From the IMG/VR virus record IMGVR_UViG_2778261571_000008: DNA of 5,990 nucleotides. One strand, written 5' to 3'. Origin of the DNA: a virus. Taxonomy: Duplodnaviria > Heunggongvirae > Uroviricota > Caudoviricetes. The notes under the pieces were generated by a model that did not search any database, had not been told where the DNA came from, and was given only the letters and a program-made list of their open reading frames with translations. Positions 1 to 5,990 of the stretch are shown here, in pieces (positions within the stretch are counted from its first letter, which is position 1; the number at the start of each line of letters is the position of its first letter). The position numbers and the translations under genes are program-made.

Positions 1-16
1 TTTTTGTGAAGTCGTC
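1..16. repeat. Left copy of 16-bp terminal direct repeat TTTTTGTGAAGTCGTC
   Basis: Exact 16/16 identity with positions 5975-5990, read directly from the sequence. Chance identity at both exact termini is negligible. Confidence 0.9.
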
Positions 17-322
17 TAATTCATCGCCGAAATATTCTCGATAATCTGGAACGCGCTGTTCTGAAATTGCGTTTGTGGCGATGTCTGGTTTATCGGCTTG
101 TAGTTTATCGACGTTTGCCAGATATACGCCCAGCGACCCAGCTGACCCCATTACCGCCAGCATTCTGCTACGTTCTGCGGCATTGGGAGCGATTGAGGCC
201 AATTGCGCTTTAATTTTGCTTACCTCTTCATCAATGACCCTCTGAATAAGCGGGCCGTTTGCCTGAAGAACTTCCTTAGTAATTTCCTGTGCCAACTGGC
301 GAATATATTCTTTGCGTGTCAT
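1..322 (-). CDS. Hypothetical acidic protein (orfA), N-terminal segment; runs off the window start with no stop
   Basis: ATG at 322-320 with a GGAG-like SD about 10 nt upstream. Open for 107 codons (MTRKEYIRQLAQEITKEVLQ...YREYFGDELDDFTK) to position 2. Absent from the ORF track because it has no stop in the window. Frame-continuous with the ORF entering at 5990 (see 5868-5990). No family recognised. Confidence 0.55.
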   Translation of the reverse strand, partial: MTRKEYIRQLAQEITKEVLQANGPLIQRVIDEEVSKIKAQLASIAPNAAERSRMLAVMGSAGSLGVYLANVDKLQADKPDIATNAISEQRVPDYREYFGDELDDFTK

Positions 323-343
323 TTCTTGTTATCTCCGTTCATC

Positions 344-655
344 TTATTTCTGAAGAAAACTCATACCGTGCCCGATCTTGTTCGCAACCTTTCCGGCAAG
401 CATCCGCCTAATATGGGTTTCATTTAATACGTCGTGAGTCACACTATCTTCGCCTGCCATACATTCCGGCATCTGGCTGAATAACGCGGCGGCGGATTCG
501 TCGAGAATTTCACTGAGTAAATCAGGCAGCATGTCAACGATACGATCTGCCTCGGCGCTCATTGCTTTATCAAAAGAGCGTTTATCTAATGTTTCCTGTG
601 AAGGCTTGTAATTATTACCAACCCGATTAAGGTAACTATTATTTGGGTAGTACAT
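344..655 (-). CDS. Hypothetical small acidic protein (103 aa)
   Basis: ORF-track ORF; ATG at 655-653 preceded by GAGGAAA SD with about 9-nt spacing. Stop TAA at 346-344 lies 21 nt before the orfA ATG, same strand, so operon context. No recognisable motif. Confidence 0.55.
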   Translation of the reverse strand: MYYPNNSYLNRVGNNYKPSQETLDKRSFDKAMSAEADRIVDMLPDLLSEILDESAAALFSQMPECMAGEDSVTHDVLNETHIRRMLAGKVANKIGHGMSFLQK

Positions 656-681
656 GATAAATTTCCTCGATTAATTAGTTT

Positions 682-1200
682 CTATAAAATGGCGTTGCTA
701 CATGAAAAATATGATCTTGCTGCGTATAATCGCCGTGGTTTTTCACCAGAACACGGCATCAACATCCAGCGCGGTTTGTGTTTAGTTAGCGCCTTGCGCG
801 GCTGCTGATGCGGCTTGCGCGGGCTGGCGGCGTTCTCTGCTACTGATACGATCTCAAGATTTGAAAGGCGGTTATCAGTGCCGTTGCCATTTTTATGATT
901 TACGCAAAAACCGGGTTTAATCGCATCAAAACCGCAAGTCAGCCAGATCACAATATTATGCGCTCTGAATAGTTTCTTTTTGCCGTTAACTGTTACGACA
1001 ACCCTGTAATAACGGTGCTTGTTACGGCATTTATATTTACGACCATCACGCTTAATTTTGTATTTCTTTTCAGACGGCTTAAGGCATAGCTCATGACCGT
1101 CACGATCTAAACCTGTTTGCGATCTGCTGTTTACTGTAAAGCGCCGTTTAATTTCTTCCTGATACTCAGGCGGCGGTATTAGTGGCGTTGGCATTGACAT
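682..1200 (-). CDS. HNH endonuclease (HNH_3-type motif)
   Basis: Translation contains RAHNIVIWLTCGFDAIKPGFCVNHKNGNGTDNRLSNLEIVS, the classic H...N...HxNGNxxDNRxxNL HNH signature; the His of VNH is encoded at 897-895. Preferred start is ATG at 1200-1198 (SD GAGTGAGGT, 5-nt spacer) rather than the track's GTG at 1212, which lies inside the SD. Stop TAG at 684-682. Confidence 0.8.
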   Translation of the reverse strand: MSMPTPLIPPPEYQEEIKRRFTVNSRSQTGLDRDGHELCLKPSEKKYKIKRDGRKYKCRNKHRYYRVVVTVNGKKKLFRAHNIVIWLTCGFDAIKPGFCVNHKNGNGTDNRLSNLEIVSVAENAASPRKPHQQPRKALTKHKPRWMLMPCSGEKPRRLYAARSYFSCSNAIL

Positions 1201-1215
1201 GTTTAACCTCACTCA

Positions 1216-1404
1216 TTAACGTTTACGTCCGCGATAGAAATATTCCAGGACTTCACTACGAATAAAGCGGAGCGGCGTTCCTTCAGGGCTAACAGGAATT
1301 GGAAAGCCGGGGATTTTATCTACCCACCTGAGAATCGTGCGCTTGCTTACACAAAAAAGTCGAGCGACTTGTTCGCAGCTTATCAATTCGGGAAAGTCGT
1401 TCAT
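1216..1404 (-). CDS. AlpA-family / excisionase-like HTH DNA-binding protein (about 62 aa)
   Basis: Translation MNDFPELISCEQVARLFCVSKRTILRWVDKIPGFPIPVSPEGTPLRFIRSEVLEYF fits the AlpA/Xis-type HTH pattern (helix, TIyrw, FP-P, then W/E-rich tail). Strong SD AAAGAGGTGA 6 nt before ATG at 1404-1402; the track's start at 1413 is GTG and overlaps the SD. Stop TAA at 1218-1216 is 15 nt before the HNH start. Confidence 0.75.
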   Translation of the reverse strand: MNDFPELISCEQVARLFCVSKRTILRWVDKIPGFPIPVSPEGTPLRFIRSEVLEYFYRGRKR

Positions 1405-2310
1405 TTTCATCACCTCTTTAAAAAAGAGCGGTGGCTGAAAAATATGGAGGAAACAACCACCGCCGTGAACGAAAATAGGCTATATCGGAGAAGTTGATAT
1501 AAATATTTTAATCCCCGCGTCGTACGTGTGCAAACACGGCTTCATTGTCGAATATGGCGTTTTTGTGTAATTAGCAGATCTGGTTTTGATACCCGTCATC
1601 GATATTCAGTCAACTAAAAGGCTGGTTTTGGCCTAAGTGTTGAATGGCACTTTTGGAACGCGTCCGATTTCCACGGTTAATCAGCCACCACGATCCAGAC
1701 GGTAGAATGCGGCTTTCAGCCTGCTGAAATGTGTAACATTCCTGCGCTTTAACAAGATCGGGCTATCTGGTACAGATGGCGGCGGCGATCTGTATTTGGT
1801 GGCGGACTAATCTGCGCAGAATCCCGCTGATTTCTTGATGGCAATAAAGCTAACCATAGCGATTCTAAGCGCCTCATCTTTGCCGGTATGCAAACGGTCA
1901 GCCATGTCACATTGAGCGCGTCAGAGGCGCTACTGTGAAGCGGTGCTATAGCTGCGGCGTATCATTGCCAGCGTCATCGTCGTCACGGGAAAAGCTGTAC
2001 ATGCGGGGATCGAGATAGTCGATACAGAAAACCCCGTCATACAGGAAAGCGAGTGCCGTAGCGCAAGCGAAGGCACCAGGCATGTAGCTACGCGCTGAAT
2101 GCGAGTCACAACAGCTTAACAAAAGCACATACATCGCGATAACGCGGTAACACATCCGGCACCACATGCGTAACTGTGTGTTACCCCAGACGTGGCGCGG
2201 CTCTCAGGCTGATTTTGTCTTTTCCGGTCCCACATCTCGGGTACTTTCCAAAACTTTCTACTTTATAAAAATGGAGTAGAAAACAGAGTGAAATCTTTTT
2301 TTTCTGATTT

Positions 2311-2330
2311 ATCTGGTACCATCTGGTACC
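2311..2330. repeat. Perfect tandem 10-bp direct repeat ATCTGGTACC x2 (forward iterons)
   Basis: Read directly: atctggtacc atctggtacc. Each unit contains a GGTACC hexamer. Confidence 0.85.
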
Positions 2331-2366
2331 CATAGAATATATGTAACTACATCAATAACTTAAGTT

Positions 2367-2400
2367 GGTACCACATCCGGTCCCACATCGGTCCCACATC
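2367..2400. repeat. Three tandem inverted-orientation iterons (GGTACCACATC-C-GGTCCCACATC-GGTCCCACATC)
   Basis: Read directly; 11-12-bp periodicity, about one helical turn. The reverse complement GATGTGG(T/G)ACC matches the forward iteron ATCTGGTACC at 8-9 of 10 positions. Confidence 0.85.
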
Positions 2401-2423
2401 CTGCATCTGGTACCATTTTGACC

Positions 2424-2451
2424 AAAAAAAAGCCAACCCCGAAGGATTGGC
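2424..2451 (-). terminator. Rho-independent terminator downstream of the replication gene
   Basis: On the minus strand: hairpin GCCAATCC-TTCG-GGGTTGGC (8-bp stem, one mismatch, tetraloop) at 2451-2432, followed by eight T (plus-strand A-run 2424-2431). It lies 23 nt after the stop codon at 2477-2475. Confidence 0.75.
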
Positions 2452-2474
2452 GTGTTAAAAGTTAAACAATCTGT

Positions 2475-4064
2475 TTACTTGCTCGTAACCTCAGTCATCA
2501 CGTCACTTGCGCTTGCCATTTTGGCTACTTTCGCACGGTCACGCGCTGCCCTTAGTTCGTCGGCAACCTCAAACGGTTTTGCCTGTAGCCAGCGAACGTG
2601 ATTGCGGATAATCCATCCTCGCACTGGTTTTCCGTCAACCTTAACTTGTGGCGCGGCTACCATTCCCGCATCCTCAAACATACGGCGCTGTTTGTTCGTG
2701 ATCTGCGCGTCCACGTCTTCCAGAATGTACTCAGACAGATCTCTGTTGCTGATAATGTCAGAAGGCCAGTCAGCGATCAGTTCATCAAGATATACGCGTT
2801 CCAGCGGTTTGGCTGAGTTAATTGCCCGTAACTTATCCTCATCACACACAGGCGGCTGTTTAATATCGAACCCGCTCAGGTCACGCGTTGCCAGTTGCCA
2901 TCCTAACGCGTTAATCGCTTTGGGATCGCTTATCAGGTCATCAATGCGCTTCGCCATCTCCCTTGCCGCTTCCTTGCCGTATACATCCGCGTATTTGCCT
3001 GAGGTGTGACGGATGACAAACCAGCGGCGATCATGTTCGTCTATTGGCAGTGGGTTGTCATGGTTAGAACACACAAACCAGCGGCACGCGTTCCATTCTT
3101 CATACTTCGCGCCATATTTCACATTAACGCTGCGTACTGGCTCCGTTATCATCGCTTTAAGGCGATTAGCTGTACGGTATTGGCTGTTATCACCTTCCCG
3201 CACTTCGTCGCATGTTGCCAGAACCGCGCCAGCCAGTTCGCTGTTGAACTGCCCTTCAAGTAGCGCATGGATATTAACGCCAGATGCGCAGTTACGTCCT
3301 AACAGGTGTTTTAGGATGTCGCAGAAAGTTGTTCGACCAACGCCCTGAGTTCCGTTTGTGTAATGAAGAATGCCCCAGTGCGGTAGTACCTCAGGGTGCT
3401 GGATCATGTGCGCAATCCAGTTCACTACCGTTACCCACTTGTCACCGAAAAGCCAACGGCAATCATCATAGAATGCGCTGACGTCCGTTTCATTGTCTGG
3501 AAGCCAGATACGCTTTTTCCACAGGTTGAGGCATTTACGACCGCGCGGATCTTCGCAAATTACCGGGCGACCAGGTGCGCAGGTCAGGGCGTCAACAATC
3601 ATGCGCTTATCGCTCTCACGCCAGAGGCTAGTTGTCGGGACGGCCTTCATTTTCAACCCAGCACCCGCGCCGCCGCCAACGTCGATCATCGTTTTACTGG
3701 CGGCATTCATGTTTTTAAACTCTGACCATTTGAAATTACGGTAAGGCTCATCAAGATAAGCAACGCGTTCGCCGTCAGCCACCCAGACACATTTGGTCAG
3801 CATTTCATCCAACGTCATGATCTGCGGCTTCATGGCGTCAACGTCAAGCTGTTGCGGCTCCGTAGCTTTGACTGCGTTTTCCGCAATGCGCTGGCGTTCA
3901 GCTTCGCGCTCTTTGATCTGTTGTTCGGCGATCTCTACGACGCTGGCAAGCTCCTCGTCAGTAGGGCTAATGCGCACACCTGCGCTATTTAGCGGTATTA
4001 CATTTGCGATATTTTTTTCAGCTCTGACCTGGTCATCCGGGCCGTTTTGTGGCATATTAATCAT
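2475..4064 (-). CDS. Replication initiator: SF3 (D5/P4-alpha C-terminal-like) helicase-type protein, 529 aa, with atypical Walker A
   Basis: Motifs in canonical SF3 order and spacing: Walker-A-like HYTNGTQGVGRTTF (R codon at 3335-3333), Walker B AVLATCDEV (DE at 3209-3204), motif C WFVCSNH (N at 3065-3063). SD AAAGAGG 9 nt before ATG at 4064-4062. Followed by terminator and iteron origin. No separate primase domain was recognised by eye. Confidence 0.8.
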   Translation of the reverse strand: MINMPQNGPDDQVRAEKNIANVIPLNSAGVRISPTDEELASVVEIAEQQIKEREAERQRIAENAVKATEPQQLDVDAMKPQIMTLDEMLTKCVWVADGERVAYLDEPYRNFKWSEFKNMNAASKTMIDVGGGAGAGLKMKAVPTTSLWRESDKRMIVDALTCAPGRPVICEDPRGRKCLNLWKKRIWLPDNETDVSAFYDDCRWLFGDKWVTVVNWIAHMIQHPEVLPHWGILHYTNGTQGVGRTTFCDILKHLLGRNCASGVNIHALLEGQFNSELAGAVLATCDEVREGDNSQYRTANRLKAMITEPVRSVNVKYGAKYEEWNACRWFVCSNHDNPLPIDEHDRRWFVIRHTSGKYADVYGKEAAREMAKRIDDLISDPKAINALGWQLATRDLSGFDIKQPPVCDEDKLRAINSAKPLERVYLDELIADWPSDIISNRDLSEYILEDVDAQITNKQRRMFEDAGMVAAPQVKVDGKPVRGWIIRNHVRWLQAKPFEVADELRAARDRAKVAKMASASDVMTEVTSK

Positions 4065-4132
4065 GTTGAGTAGCCTCTTTTCGTTGCCTATTCACAGCCG
4101 TTCGATTCAGCACCGTAAACGGCTCCAACATT

Positions 4133-4161
4133 GCCCCGGTTGCGACGGGGCTTTGTTATTT
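4133..4161 (+). terminator. Terminator-like GC hairpin plus T-rich run, plus-strand orientation, in the leader between the second alpA-like gene and the replication gene
   Basis: GCCCCG-gttgcga-CGGGGC (perfect 6-bp GC stem, 4133-4151) followed on the plus strand by TTTGTTATTT (4152-4161). It overlaps the stop codon of the 4156-4401 gene. On the minus-strand mRNA the same hairpin forms but is not followed by a U-run. Confidence 0.3.
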
Positions 4162-4401
4162 CTGGTCTATGTATCTTCCGCATTGCTGTAAATCCCTCAT
4201 TAGCTCGTCTCTATGGATTTCGTACCACGCAAGCATGTCGGCTTTTAGCCATAACATCATGTTTCCGCGCCCTCGTGTCATAGGTTCCGGGAAATCCGGG
4301 TAACGACGCATTACGTGGTAAACTGAGCGCCGTGAGCGGTTAAGTAGTTCGCTGACATCTCTTACTGTCATGATGAAATCCTTCACCGTTTGGCCTTTCA
4401 T
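4156..4401 (-). CDS. AlpA-family / excisionase-like HTH DNA-binding protein (81 aa, or 71 aa from internal Met)
   Basis: Translation ...MTVRDVSELLNRSRRSVYHVMRRYPDFPEPMTRGRGNMMLWLKADMLAWYE fits the AlpA/Xis HTH pattern. SD AAAGAGGG 7 nt before ATG at 4401-4399; an alternative ATG at 4371-4369 has a GAAGGA SD. Stop TAA at 4158-4156 is 91 nt upstream of the replication gene. Confidence 0.7.
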   Translation of the reverse strand: MKGQTVKDFIMTVRDVSELLNRSRRSVYHVMRRYPDFPEPMTRGRGNMMLWLKADMLAWYEIHRDELMRDLQQCGRYIDQK

Positions 4402-4714
4402 GGTTCTGCCCTCTTTGTTAAAACTACACGATCACTGTAACCCATATTTTTAGCTATTCACAACTTTTCCCCATTTCAGCGACCATAAACGCAAAAACCC
4501 AGCGCTATGGCTGTTCGATGAATTGTTATCAGGATGTTTCCTATCCGACCAGTTAAACCAGCGACAGGTCAACATGTGACTATTGAGTTGCGTAATGATT
4601 TACTGCTGGAAAGGATAAACTCAGCTTCAGTGGCTCAATTTCCCGTTTTGCGTCTGTCAGGGCTATAAAATTCGTCTCAATTCTGTGAGATGCATCACAC
4701 TTTATGCCTGATAT

Positions 4715-4733
4715 TTATACAGTAACTGTATAA
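4715..4733. repeat. 19-bp perfect palindrome TTATACAGT-A-ACTGTATAA overlapping the LexA-like box
   Basis: Read directly. 9-bp arms with a 1-bp centre; chance expectation in 6 kb is about 0.02. It shares the ACTGTATAA arm with the LexA-like site, giving three alternating ATACAG/CTGTAT half-sites across 4717-4741. Confidence 0.8.
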
Positions 4734-4743
4734 CCATACAGGC
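4724..4743. promoter_or_regulatory. LexA-box-like site (SOS box), CTGTAT-N4-ATACAG
   Basis: aaCTGTATaaccATACAGgc: CTGT at 4726-4729 and ACAG at 4738-4741 with an 8-nt spacer; both 6-bp arms CTGTAT/ATACAG are perfect. It matches 14 of 20 positions of the E. coli consensus TACTGTATATATATACAGTA, including the whole invariant core. It is the only CTGT-N8-ACAG in the window. Confidence 0.45.
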
Positions 4744-5094
4744 CGAAAACCCGCTGTTTTACTGCCTATTTACCATAATGGATCTTGTGCGCACCATTTT
4801 CCGGTGATTGATTTCTGACCCTGTTTCGACGATAAAGCCATCCATTTTTCTCTGACTCGTAAAAGCTGGCATGAAATTTGATGTGGCGTGATTTGTTATG
4901 ATTGTGTTACCGCCAGTCTTGCCGCTGACGTCGGCTACGCGCGCGCATGTACATGTCCGAAAATTACCCCCATAAAAGCGCCCCTCATATAGTGCAAAAA
5001 CCCGGATGGCGCGGCTTTCGGCGGTTTTAGCATTGAAAACTAACTTCAAAAACGGCCCGCTATCGTTCGCTAACTACTCGCTAACCTCTCTGGC

Positions 5095-5388
5095 TTACTC
5101 GTCGATGTCAGCGCCACATGCCCTCAACTGGGCGTGTATATCCGCTTTGATTAACTTCAATCGACGGACGAAGCGCTGTTCATCATCGTTGCAGTTGTAC
5201 AGGCTGCCGTTTTCGCCTGTTGCCTTCATCGAAATCAATTTGTTGATCGTGCCTATAACAAGCTCACCAAAGCATCGAAGGGCGGTGCGTTTGGCTGGCA
5301 GTTGGCACGCTGGGCAAGAATGAAGGATATAAGCTGACCTTTCTGCGATCTCGCGGGCCATGCCGGTGATGATTTTTAAGCACAACAT
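5095..5388 (-). CDS. Hypothetical Cys-containing small protein (97 aa)
   Basis: ORF-track ORF with good SD GGAGAG 6 nt before ATG at 5388-5386. Contains HSCPAC (a CxxC pair) plus three further Cys. Preferred over the overlapping plus-strand ORF 5006-5323, which has no SD and a low-complexity translation. Confidence 0.5.
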   Translation of the reverse strand: MLCLKIITGMAREIAERSAYILHSCPACQLPAKRTALRCFGELVIGTINKLISMKATGENGSLYNCNDDEQRFVRRLKLIKADIHAQLRACGADIDE

Positions 5389-5480
5389 GATTTACTCTCC
5401 GGTCGCTGTATAATTAACGTGATTTAAAACATTGTTCCGATGTCACCACTTAACTTGTTGTCAACGATTTCGCATTGTTT

Positions 5481-5506
5481 GCCCGGTAGTGATTGCCGGG
5501 CTTTTT
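5481..5506 (+). terminator. Terminator-like hairpin plus T5, plus-strand orientation, in the intergenic region between orfB and the 97-aa gene
   Basis: GCCCGG-tagtgattg-CCGGGC (6-bp GC stem, 5481-5501) followed by TTTTT (5502-5506). A perfect TATAAT hexamer lies on the plus strand at 5409-5414, about 70 bp upstream. Confidence 0.3.
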
Positions 5507-5517
5507 CTTGCCTGTGA

Positions 5518-5862
5518 TTAGTCGAAGTAGCTGCCAATATCCGGTGTCCGGGTATCAGTTTTCCGGGTAGGCGTGGAGAAGTACGACTCCAGATCCGGCG
5601 TTTTAGGCCCGCGCTGGGCGTTGGCGGCGGGTTGCTTTTCTTCTGGCTGTTCCGGCTGTTTACCAGCGAAACGGCGCTCCAGTTGGTCCATCAGCACCAC
5701 CATCATTTCCTGGACCAGCTTTTCATCGGCTTTGTCCAGGCTTTCCAATACCATCGCCATCCCTTTGCGAAATTTAAGCTCAGCGGCGTCCGGTTCCGGT
5801 GCTGATTCGTTTGCTTTAACTGCCAGGGCGATCCGGCGTTTTGCTTCATCTAAAAAACTCAT
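5518..5862 (-). CDS. Hypothetical small acidic protein (orfB, 114 aa), translationally coupled to orfA
   Basis: ATG at 5862-5860 lies 5 nt after the orfA stop (TAA 5870-5868); its SD GGGGGA (5877-5872) is inside the end of orfA. C-terminal tail ...PDLESYFSTPTRKTDTRTPDIGSYFD carries two SYF motifs. No family recognised. Confidence 0.6.
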   Translation of the reverse strand: MSFLDEAKRRIALAVKANESAPEPDAAELKFRKGMAMVLESLDKADEKLVQEMMVVLMDQLERRFAGKQPEQPEEKQPAANAQRGPKTPDLESYFSTPTRKTDTRTPDIGSYFD

Positions 5863-5867
5863 TTTGT

Positions 5868-5990
5868 TTATTCCCCCATATAGAAATAGTCATCTAATTG
5901 ATCGCGTAGTTCTTTTGGTCCGTTAAACCATTCATCAATGGTCGCATTAAATACCGGATCGCCATCGAAGTAGGTTTTTGTGAAGTCGTC
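5868..5990 (-). CDS. orfA, C-terminal segment (enters window at 5990; stop TAA at 5870-5868)
   Basis: Reverse-complement translation from 5990: DDFTKTYFDGDPVFNATIDEWFNGPKELRDQLDDYFYMGE-stop. The first five codons are encoded by the 16-bp repeat and are in the same frame as the final DDFTK of the 1-322 segment. Joined product is 142 aa. Confidence 0.55.
   Translation of the reverse strand, partial: DDFTKTYFDGDPVFNATIDEWFNGPKELRDQLDDYFYMGE
5975..5990. repeat. Right copy of 16-bp terminal direct repeat TTTTTGTGAAGTCGTC
   Basis: Exact identity with positions 1-16. Confidence 0.9.

Follow-up and report, generated by a model that had tools for sequence, protein, structure and literature searches.

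For more than 10% of Escherichia coli plasmids, according to a 2025 review, it is not known how they are transferred; of satellites that live as plasmids, which "may exist and remain unknown", the review knew a single example, dependent on an inovirus (PMC12282955). The first satellite-plasmids of tailed phages, named PISP and cf-PISP, were reported in 2026 from Vibrio crassostreae and from no other genus, and carry parA/repA and capsid genes (PMC13230959). Here we analyze the stretch of DNA recorded as IMG/VR virus IMGVR_UViG_2778261571_000008 (5,990 nucleotides, hereafter the window). It is in all likelihood a complete circular E. coli plasmid of 5,974 bp, and it carries an operon shared with chromosomal islands. 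We favor reading it as a minimal, terminase-less member of a family of phage-satellite plasmids, with moderate confidence. The family is apparently an undescribed E. coli family of small plasmids that fits the satellite-plasmid concept with different parts; in the literature, we found no paper on integrase-less plasmids of this type in E. coli.

Compared by description, the window resembles PISP and cf-PISP (PMC13230959) as a small integrase-less circle, related to phage-inducible chromosomal islands (PICIs), with a phage-type regulator and a proposed combination of plasmid inheritance with spread in helper particles; the small terminase (TerS) occurs here in sister plasmids only. Its parts are different. 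PISP are 11–16 kb long with parA/repA, capsid genes and MerR/Stl-type regulators, whereas the window is 6 kb, comes from E. coli and has a DUF5906 replication initiator (Rep) with iterons; it appears to use host XerCD, with a resolvase taking that place in relatives, and lacks partition genes, parA, repA and a capsid gene. None of the PISP hallmark genes (capsid protein, protease, small terminase) is present in the window, and larger siblings carry a tape-measure protein in place of the capsid gene, TerS and tape measure being confined to these sisters.

Gram-negative PICIs such as EcCICFT073 (Fillol-Salom 2018, PMC6092414; 2019, PMC6739421) share with the window unidirectional transcription, a small regulator (AlpA-type in PICIs, putatively so in the window) at the head of the operon, a replication gene followed by an iteron origin, variants with and without terminase and an occasional HNH nuclease, and close relatives of the window are integrated beside a tyrosine integrase. 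In contrast to these PICIs, the window has no integrase, att site, detected Rpp-like protein (none by PDB sequence or profile search) or recognized lambda-type cos; its gene order differs, rep and the origin preceding alpA on the circle, and the primase half is absent. Nor is there a PICI capsid-morphogenesis gene, judging from the lack of any capsid or scaffold family match in the window. P4 is a satellite that can also be maintained as a plasmid in multiple copies, and it resembles the window in its replication protein of primase-helicase type (alpha) and its regulator of AlpA/Vis type, but P4 has an integrase, sid, psu, delta and a P2-type cos, none of which was found in the window, and the window's Rep has no primase domain. 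The P4 markers psu-delta-sid, epsilon, alpha primase-helicase and integrase gave no match in the window beyond a weak one to TIGR01613.

The cryptic prophage CPZ-55 of E. coli K-12 and the allelic islands next to the integrase IntZ share the alpA-like gene, orf103, orf142, orf114 and orf97 (yffM in CPZ-55) with the window. Furthermore, yffO is the counterpart of TerS in the window's family and yffP that of the TerS partner, a 37-bp motif is 100% identical, and one island has an identical Xer site. The remaining parts are converse, since the islands have IntZ, TerS and a tape-measure homologue but no DUF5906 rep or iteron origin, while the window has the opposite set. The PICI model of de Sousa 2023 has the integrase as a core gene and forbids tail genes (PMC10085698; SatelliteFinder), and would therefore miss both the integrase-less and the tape-measure-bearing forms of the window's family.

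The window is a circle written as a line. Its first and last 16 bases (1–16 and 5975–5990, TTTTTGTGAAGTCGTC) are identical, as the initial annotation reported and direct comparison bears out; there is no further copy within the window, and two specified 16-mers would match by chance with a probability of about 2e-10. This is the sole terminal overlap, and removing one copy leaves a 5,974-bp unit. A gene is thereby restored in frame: the minus-strand open reading frame (ORF) with its ATG at 322 (N-terminal 107 codons, 1–322) is still open at the left end and continues from 5974 to a stop codon at 5868–5870 (C-terminal part and stop, 5868–5990), yielding a protein of 142 amino acids (aa), orf142, that ends 5 nt upstream of orf114 (5862–5518). 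The restored gene has homologues in 332 clusters and a ratio of nonsynonymous to synonymous substitution rates (dN/dS) of 0.20 against its counterpart in the relative L029 (relatives are designated by such L numbers).

An independent assembly places the joint in continuous sequence. Exact-protein look-up identified the window as the entire contig NLNA01000074.1 of assembly GCA_002229155.1, and near-identical proteins carry Escherichia coli as their source name. A separate k=31 assembly (Logan, SRR3989754; L005) contains a 6,004-bp contig with a 30-bp (k−1) terminal overlap, whose 5,974-bp unit shows 0 mismatches to that of the window and has its break point 919 bases away. Because this unit breaks elsewhere, the window's joint lies in genuine, uninterrupted sequence, and each molecule contains the 16-mer once. 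On this contig (P0017/L005) an identical protein of 142 aa is encoded without a break, so the two ORF halves are one gene in their native context. The 16-bp repeat is thus an artefact of linearization, neither an att site nor a target duplication, and what had been described as a direct repeat is not a biological one. The circular, integrase-less, self-replicating element that had been preferred over an att-flanked island stands, on the second assembly, the circular relatives, the Xer site and the small size of all Rep-bearing contigs; head-to-tail tandem copies, offered as an alternative, are unlikely.

Relatives close as circles too. The two ends of the sister contig L003 (6,797 bp) fall on neighboring window positions, its start on 2303 and its end on 2304, making it self-closing, and further relatives of 5,581, 6,009, 8,903 and 9,166 bp also close. 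An 8,178-bp relative was recovered with 100% identity from three assemblers (overlaps of 141 bp, 30 bp and none), the artificial end-to-end joints of L011, L018 and L027 are bridged contiguously in relatives, and a related element of 8,873 bp, pRHB04-C06_4, has been deposited as a finished E. coli plasmid.

The joint falls within a repeated unit of orf142 (window 1–36 and 5940–5990, codons ~100–115). Most orf142 homologues are 154–156 aa long and have a 12-residue unit, ELDDFTKxYFDG (36 bp), tandemly duplicated; the window and L005 represent a one-copy allele, and the 16-mer, which encodes DDFTK, sits within the unit. A collapse during assembly was considered as the origin of the 142-aa form and rejected: L005 is contiguous here, and the two copies in close relatives share just 13–26 identical nt, which could not be merged at k=31, so the one-copy allele is real. 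A random contig break would land in the 36-bp unit with a chance of about 0.6%, and the 16-bp overlap is not a usual k−1 value.

Searches of genomes, contigs and domains agree with an extrachromosomal state. The 90%-identity cluster of Rep has 74 members, and neither in it nor in twelve related clusters at 74–91% identity does any member lie on a contig longer than 19 kb; chromosomal flanks were never seen on Rep-bearing contigs. Among 5,426 complete E. coli genomes, at most 21% of the window is covered at any one locus, even sensitive blastn gave no match to the orf81-rep-ori module, and there is no copy integrated at chromosomal dif in the manner of integrative mobile elements exploiting Xer (IMEX). 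Pfam, PHROGs and NCBIfam searches of the window's ORFs detected neither an integrase nor a recombinase domain. A tandem chromosomal array, dif integration and an excised island, each considered as a candidate, are all unsupported by these searches. Among the 120 listed of the 332 clusters of the orf142 family, about four-fifths have a longest contig of at most 12 kb and about one-fifth lie on chromosome-sized contigs. A search of PLSDB with orf142 gave no match.

The replicon has the anatomy of an iteron-type theta plasmid. The gene rep (2475–4064, minus strand) encodes a 529-aa initiator of the superfamily 3 (SF3) helicase type (DUF5906, Pfam E 9e-22), in agreement with the helicase-type initiator named in the initial annotation. 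Its match to phrog_1156 (E 1e-28) covers only profile positions 434–781 of 855, that is, the C-terminal helicase portion of phage primase-helicases; no primase domain was detected in Rep by Pfam, PHROGs or NCBIfam, and the match to TIGR01613 (E 3e-4, far under cutoff) indicates only a distant resemblance to P4-type helicase domains. Directly 3′ of rep, past a strong intrinsic terminator (2432–2451, minus strand; GCCAATCCTTCGGGGTTGGC then T8, found by terminator scan and invariant in relatives), lies a predicted origin (2146–2414) of eight iterons, [GC]AT[GC]TGKKDCC, which occur in either orientation and surround an AT-rich core at ~2237–2366. The motif is absent from the rest of the window, and iteron positions are conserved in alignment with relatives whose Rep is 80–91% identical. 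The variable dinucleotide of the iteron is GG in the window, TA in L002, L016 and L018, GT in L011 and TC in L020; all repeats of an origin switch together, tracking the Rep allele; this is the pattern expected if Rep reads the repeats. An initiator, allele-specific repeats and an AT-rich region together match, by sequence, what defines an iteron-type theta replicon.

Upstream of rep are two further conserved elements. orf81 (4156–4401, minus strand) encodes a small helix-turn-helix (HTH) protein of the excisionase/MerR-like type (HTH_17, Pfam E 1.4e-4, under the curated cutoff), and the gene sits upstream of rep in every DUF5906-type relative; the protein is probably a regulator of the replicon. 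Both genes evolve under purifying selection, with dN/dS of 0.06 for orf81 (against L002) and 0.07 for rep. Within the 91-nt leader between orf81 and rep are two conserved predicted hairpins (4095–4151, minus strand), and leader bases are nearly invariant among Rep variants 80–91% identical. On the plus strand the second hairpin is terminator-like and followed by the T-run TTTGTTATTT (terminator scan, 4133–4151), and no covariation was found in the leader hairpins. The arrangement suggests, as a guess, a copy-control element that could act on rep through an antisense transcript or through the leader itself. We also observed that the leader is better conserved than the genes on either side of it.

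A second plasmid trait is a predicted XerC/XerD core of the psi/cer type, GGTGCGCACAA-GATCCA-TTATGGTAAAT (4768–4795, minus strand). A degenerate XerC/XerD pattern has a single match in the window, and none of 200 shuffled sequences contained one. Read against reference sites taken from their own sequence records, the window core GGTGCGCACAAGATCCATTATGGTAAAT agrees with psi of pSC101 (GGTGCGCGCAAGATCCATTATGTTAAAC) at 26 of 28 positions, central hexamer included, and its XerD arm is that of ColE1 cer (GGTGCGTACAATTAAGGGATTATGGTAAAT). The site thus shares the 28-bp layout of psi and cer, with an 11-bp XerC arm, a 6-bp center equal to psi and an 11-bp XerD arm equal to cer. Relatives have either this site or a resolvase. 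Members with the Xer site and no resolvase are the window, L003, L004, L019/L020 and L030; those with a resolvase (PF00239 or annotated as 'recombinase family protein') and no Xer site are L002, L016–L018 and L023–L028. The Xer site is well supported by sequence comparison; it would resolve plasmid multimers, as the resolvase would in relatives lacking the site, and the mutual exclusion of two alternative resolution systems favors a plasmid life style.

The surroundings of the core are less typical of psi and cer, in which PepA, with ArgR or ArcA, binds an accessory sequence of about 180 bp adjoining the XerC arm. The equivalent stretch in the window (4796–4962, minus strand) resembles the accessory DNA of neither cer nor psi and has no recognized ARG box, so that an accessory role is suggested only by its position. 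It contains a 37-bp noncoding motif, ACCGCCAGTCTTGCCGCTGACGTCGGCTACGCGCGCG (4909–4945), 114 bp from the XerC arm. The motif is 100% identical in 213 E. coli genomes with K-12-type CPZ-55, just downstream of yffP, and in every Xer-bearing plasmid member as well as the Klebsiella plasmid NZ_KY751926.1, with diverged surroundings. It could be an Xer accessory site, an operator or a pac/packaging signal. A TTG-initiated ORF at 4759–5049 overlies the Xer region and was treated as noncoding. We also note that the IntZ island L010 has an identical 28-bp Xer core at 10145–10172, just upstream of its tape-measure gene and within 180 bp that are 96% identical to the plasmid; this copy may mark recombination between plasmid and island lineages.

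The link to phage satellites comes from the operon. Past a promoter-like site (1505–1534, minus strand; promoter scan), it encodes in order an AlpA-like HTH protein, an HNH_3 nuclease, orf103, orf142, orf114 and orf97. Chromosomal DNA matching the window spans the window's joint and is located in islands that adjoin the tyrosine integrase IntZ at the CPZ-55 site, between eutA and eutB. Past the shared operon these islands encode a small terminase of the Sf6 type with its partner, followed by a 2.2-kb gene (L001 8298–10487; L010 7742–9922). This last gene is no replicase but a full-length homologue of a tail tape-measure protein, 38% identical to the plasmid-borne one; no DUF5906 rep or Pfam replication domain was found in the eut-site islands. 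In K-12 itself (comparison record L009, E. coli K-12 BW25113), genes of unknown function have homologues in the family: yffO matches the family TerS at 38–41% identity, yffP its ~195-aa partner at 34–37%, and yffS a 214-aa family protein whose gene precedes the HTH-rep pair in plasmids of the resolvase type. The resemblance of YffO to Sf6 gp1 was already noted in a 2023 paper (PMC10380284). By its gene content CPZ-55 looks like a decayed member of a satellite-like family rather than the remnant of a full phage, and we found no paper treating it as a satellite.

Sister plasmids add packaging and tail genes to the same backbone. L003 and L004 share window positions 652–4962 with 99.9% identity, a segment comprising the HNH gene, alpA-like gene, spacer, origin, rep, orf81 and Xer region. 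At exactly 652 and 4962 identity drops to at most 89%, which indicates that the orf103–orf97 cassette was exchanged as a block, and TerS with a 109-aa partner (960 bp) is placed in L003 precisely at 4962. Sf6-type TerS is carried by L003, L004, L015, L017, L018 and L023–L029, and sisters with added packaging or tail genes measure 6.6–11.2 kb. In L011, L015 and L029 (10.6–11.2 kb) there is a 787–788-aa tape-measure protein matching phrog_1538 over its full length (E 5e-108), alongside TerS in L015 and L029; tape-measure coordinates are 8129–10495 in L011, 7494–9857 in L015, 501–2867 in L029 and 912–3203 in L007. Temperate E. coli phages of the mEp021 group have the closest tape-measure protein (44–61% identity), and family TerS proteins match the TerS of the same group. 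In other members, this operon is combined with replicons of at least two further types. In the 9–11-kb plasmids the complete tape-measure protein is accompanied by no other tail gene. The distant Proteus plasmid pW47-1, with a DUF5906 Rep 33% identical and its own psi-like site, likewise has a tape measure as its sole tail gene. A satellite's tape-measure protein might ease DNA entry into helper lysogens.

Because the operon is shared with the IntZ islands and larger members add TerS and a tape measure, we read the family as phage satellites. It follows PICI-like logic, with unidirectional genes, an AlpA-type regulator, rep followed by an iteron origin, optional TerS without large terminase (TerL), an occasional HNH nuclease and integrase-bearing relatives. 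Judged by gene content, that the family as a whole consists of satellites is likely; that the 5,974-bp member is still mobilized by a phage falls somewhat short of an even chance. The gene set that had been called unusual in the initial annotation is accordingly less odd than it seemed, as a reduced form of a recognizable satellite-like family.

Under this reading, the SF3-helicase core of Rep would bind the eight iterons flanking the AT-rich stretch, where replication would start, with copy number probably set by the small HTH protein and the structured leader upstream of rep. Host XerC and XerD would resolve multimers at the psi-like site. One operon core would exist in two forms, as IntZ-integrated islands and as small plasmids with interchangeable replicons and resolution systems. 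The operon would be turned on through the AlpA-like regulator during growth of a helper phage, and the element would spread in helper capsids, TerS probably being provided by a related element or a phage.

Several observations weigh against the satellite reading. Family searches of the window's ORFs detected no terminase, capsid, tail or known interference gene, which upholds the earlier statement that no such structural or packaging gene, integrase or recombinase is present. Helper assignment draws on 30–60% amino acid identity of genes that are not in the window. The label 'AlpA-like' comes from position, size and a sub-threshold HTH_17 match, not from the Pfam AlpA family, and none of the four small operon proteins has a relative of known function in Pfam, PHROGs, NCBIfam, PADLOC or PDB phmmer and profile searches. 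The window shows no similar DNA among 50,697 phage records (megablast and distant blastn), and accordingly no cos or pac site was identified. Scanning IMG/VR viral contigs with the Rep and orf142 profiles returned no family member, and there is only one relative among finished plasmids, itself without orf142.

Much of this would suit an ordinary cryptic plasmid whose operon is inert or selfish cargo from CPZ-55-type islands and which moves only by chance transduction or transformation. This explanation, which we consider unlikely though the strongest of the rivals, gains from the window's lack of TerS, tape measure and recognizable packaging site and from the family's absence from IMG/VR. The mosaic boundaries at 652 and 4962 fit cassette swapping by recombination, and terminase-less minimal forms recur (5,581, 5,974 and 6,009 bp), a recurrence that fits either decay to plain plasmids or TerS supplied in trans. 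Inert cargo is harder to reconcile with purifying selection on the operon genes (dN/dS 0.13–0.20), with an operon order kept in integrated and plasmid forms and on at least three replicon types, and with sisters whose 99.9%-identical backbone carries TerS without TerL, a satellite hallmark. A doubtful variant of the satellite reading is that the minimal plasmid is a parasite of parasites, packaged only with TerS from a CPZ-55-type island or a TerS-bearing sister plasmid while a helper phage gives the rest; the 37-bp motif would be a candidate for the shared cis site.

Defence offers another, improbable explanation, in which the AlpA-like protein is a sensor, the HNH nuclease and small proteins block phage, and no particle transfer takes place. 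Satellites and small mobile elements frequently bear defence functions, the HNH nuclease stands immediately behind a phage-type regulator, and it matches the homing-endonuclease model of PADLOC. However, PADLOC recognized no known defence system in the window beyond this generic HNH match, the TerS and tape-measure genes of the siblings would be left unaccounted for, and interference can coexist with satellite transfer. Least credible, and very improbable, are tandem copies or chromosomal integration (at dif through Xer in the manner of IMEX, or as an excised eut-site island): a cyclic assembly graph alone cannot separate a circle from an array, a dif-like site is present and island L010 holds the identical 28-bp site, but the complete-genome and Rep-contig searches described above stand against them, the eut-site islands are 60–94% identical to the window in amino acid sequence and have no DUF5906 rep, and a related element has been deposited as a closed plasmid.

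If the satellite reading is true, E. coli plasmids of 5.6–11 kb with a PICI-like operon extend the satellite-plasmid idea to the best-studied bacterium, in which helper phages and genetics are at hand. One accessory operon would then ride on alternative maintenance modules, either an integrase or a replicon with an Xer site or resolvase, and the K-12 cryptic prophage CPZ-55 (yffL–yffS) would acquire a biological context. A further question would then be what need a satellite has for a tape-measure protein of its own. The blind spot would be accounted for by the integrase requirement and tail-gene exclusion of SatelliteFinder and by finished-plasmid collections that hold one relative.

Over the window's genes, dN/dS (0.06–0.20) indicates purifying selection. 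The eight genes judged credible all have the minus strand as coding strand, in line with the single coding strand noted at the outset. The AlpA-like regulator, first gene of the operon, lies at 1216–1404 (minus strand; 62 aa from ATG 1404 or 65 aa from GTG 1413). It matches HTH_17 (E 3e-5, under cutoff) and phrog_66, 'excisionase and transcriptional regulator' (E 4e-7), and is 76% identical to the same-position gene of IntZ island L001. Next comes the HNH endonuclease of the HNH_3 homing type (682–1200, minus strand; 172 aa, ATG 1200), for which matches to Pfam HNH_3 (E 4.6e-7, over cutoff), phrog_59 (E 4e-17) and PADLOC HEase (E 3e-9) confirm the earlier label.

The four small genes that follow are real, as their dN/dS of 0.13–0.20 against diverged homologues indicates. 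orf103 (344–655, minus strand) encodes a conserved small protein predicted to form a helical hairpin. It shares 94% identity with the L001 protein, its 71 clusters of homologues are all from Escherichia, and its dN/dS is 0.18; its AlphaFold2 (AF2) model (mean confidence score, pLDDT, 80) gave no Foldseek match at E ≤ 0.001 against PDB and BFVD. The orf142 protein is 60% identical to that of L001, and its AF2 model is all-helical with a pLDDT of 53, too low for use or a fold search. orf114 (5518–5862, minus strand) is a small conserved protein, helical in its N-terminal half and ending in a disordered tail with SYF motifs, 89% identical to the L001 counterpart (dN/dS 0.13). orf97 (5095–5388, minus strand), the homologue of YffM, is 55% identical to yffM, 58% to the L002 protein and 37% to the L003 protein (dN/dS 0.15); a plus-strand ORF at 5006–5323 was rejected in favor of this minus-strand gene, which is conserved in L002, L003 and yffM. 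The C-termini of orf142 (5868–5990 and 1–40) and orf114 (5518–5600) both have acidic ends with repeated Y-F motifs (YFDG and DDYFYMGE in orf142; LESYF and GSYFD in orf114), which could be short linear motifs binding a common partner.

Noncoding segments of the window are also partly conserved. The spacer between the origin and the alpA-like gene (1414–2145) keeps the distance from rep to alpA at about 1.06 kb, constant in all DUF5906-type relatives. Its length (~730 bp) is kept and its sequence partly so, and the same map position holds int and att in integrated relatives. An ORF of 69–73 aa within it (1946–2167) was rejected as a gene, being probably noncoding because of 1-nt indels across the alignment of relatives. 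The Rfam search at E ≤ 1 produced a chance match only, and the window has no tRNA. In the gap between orf114 and orf97, a hairpin with a 9-bp stem followed by T5 lies on the plus strand, antisense to the operon (5481–5501), and about 20 nt downstream of it, on the coding strand, is a perfect TTGACA. The gap is kept at ~125–130 nt in relatives and may be an internal promoter or regulatory point.

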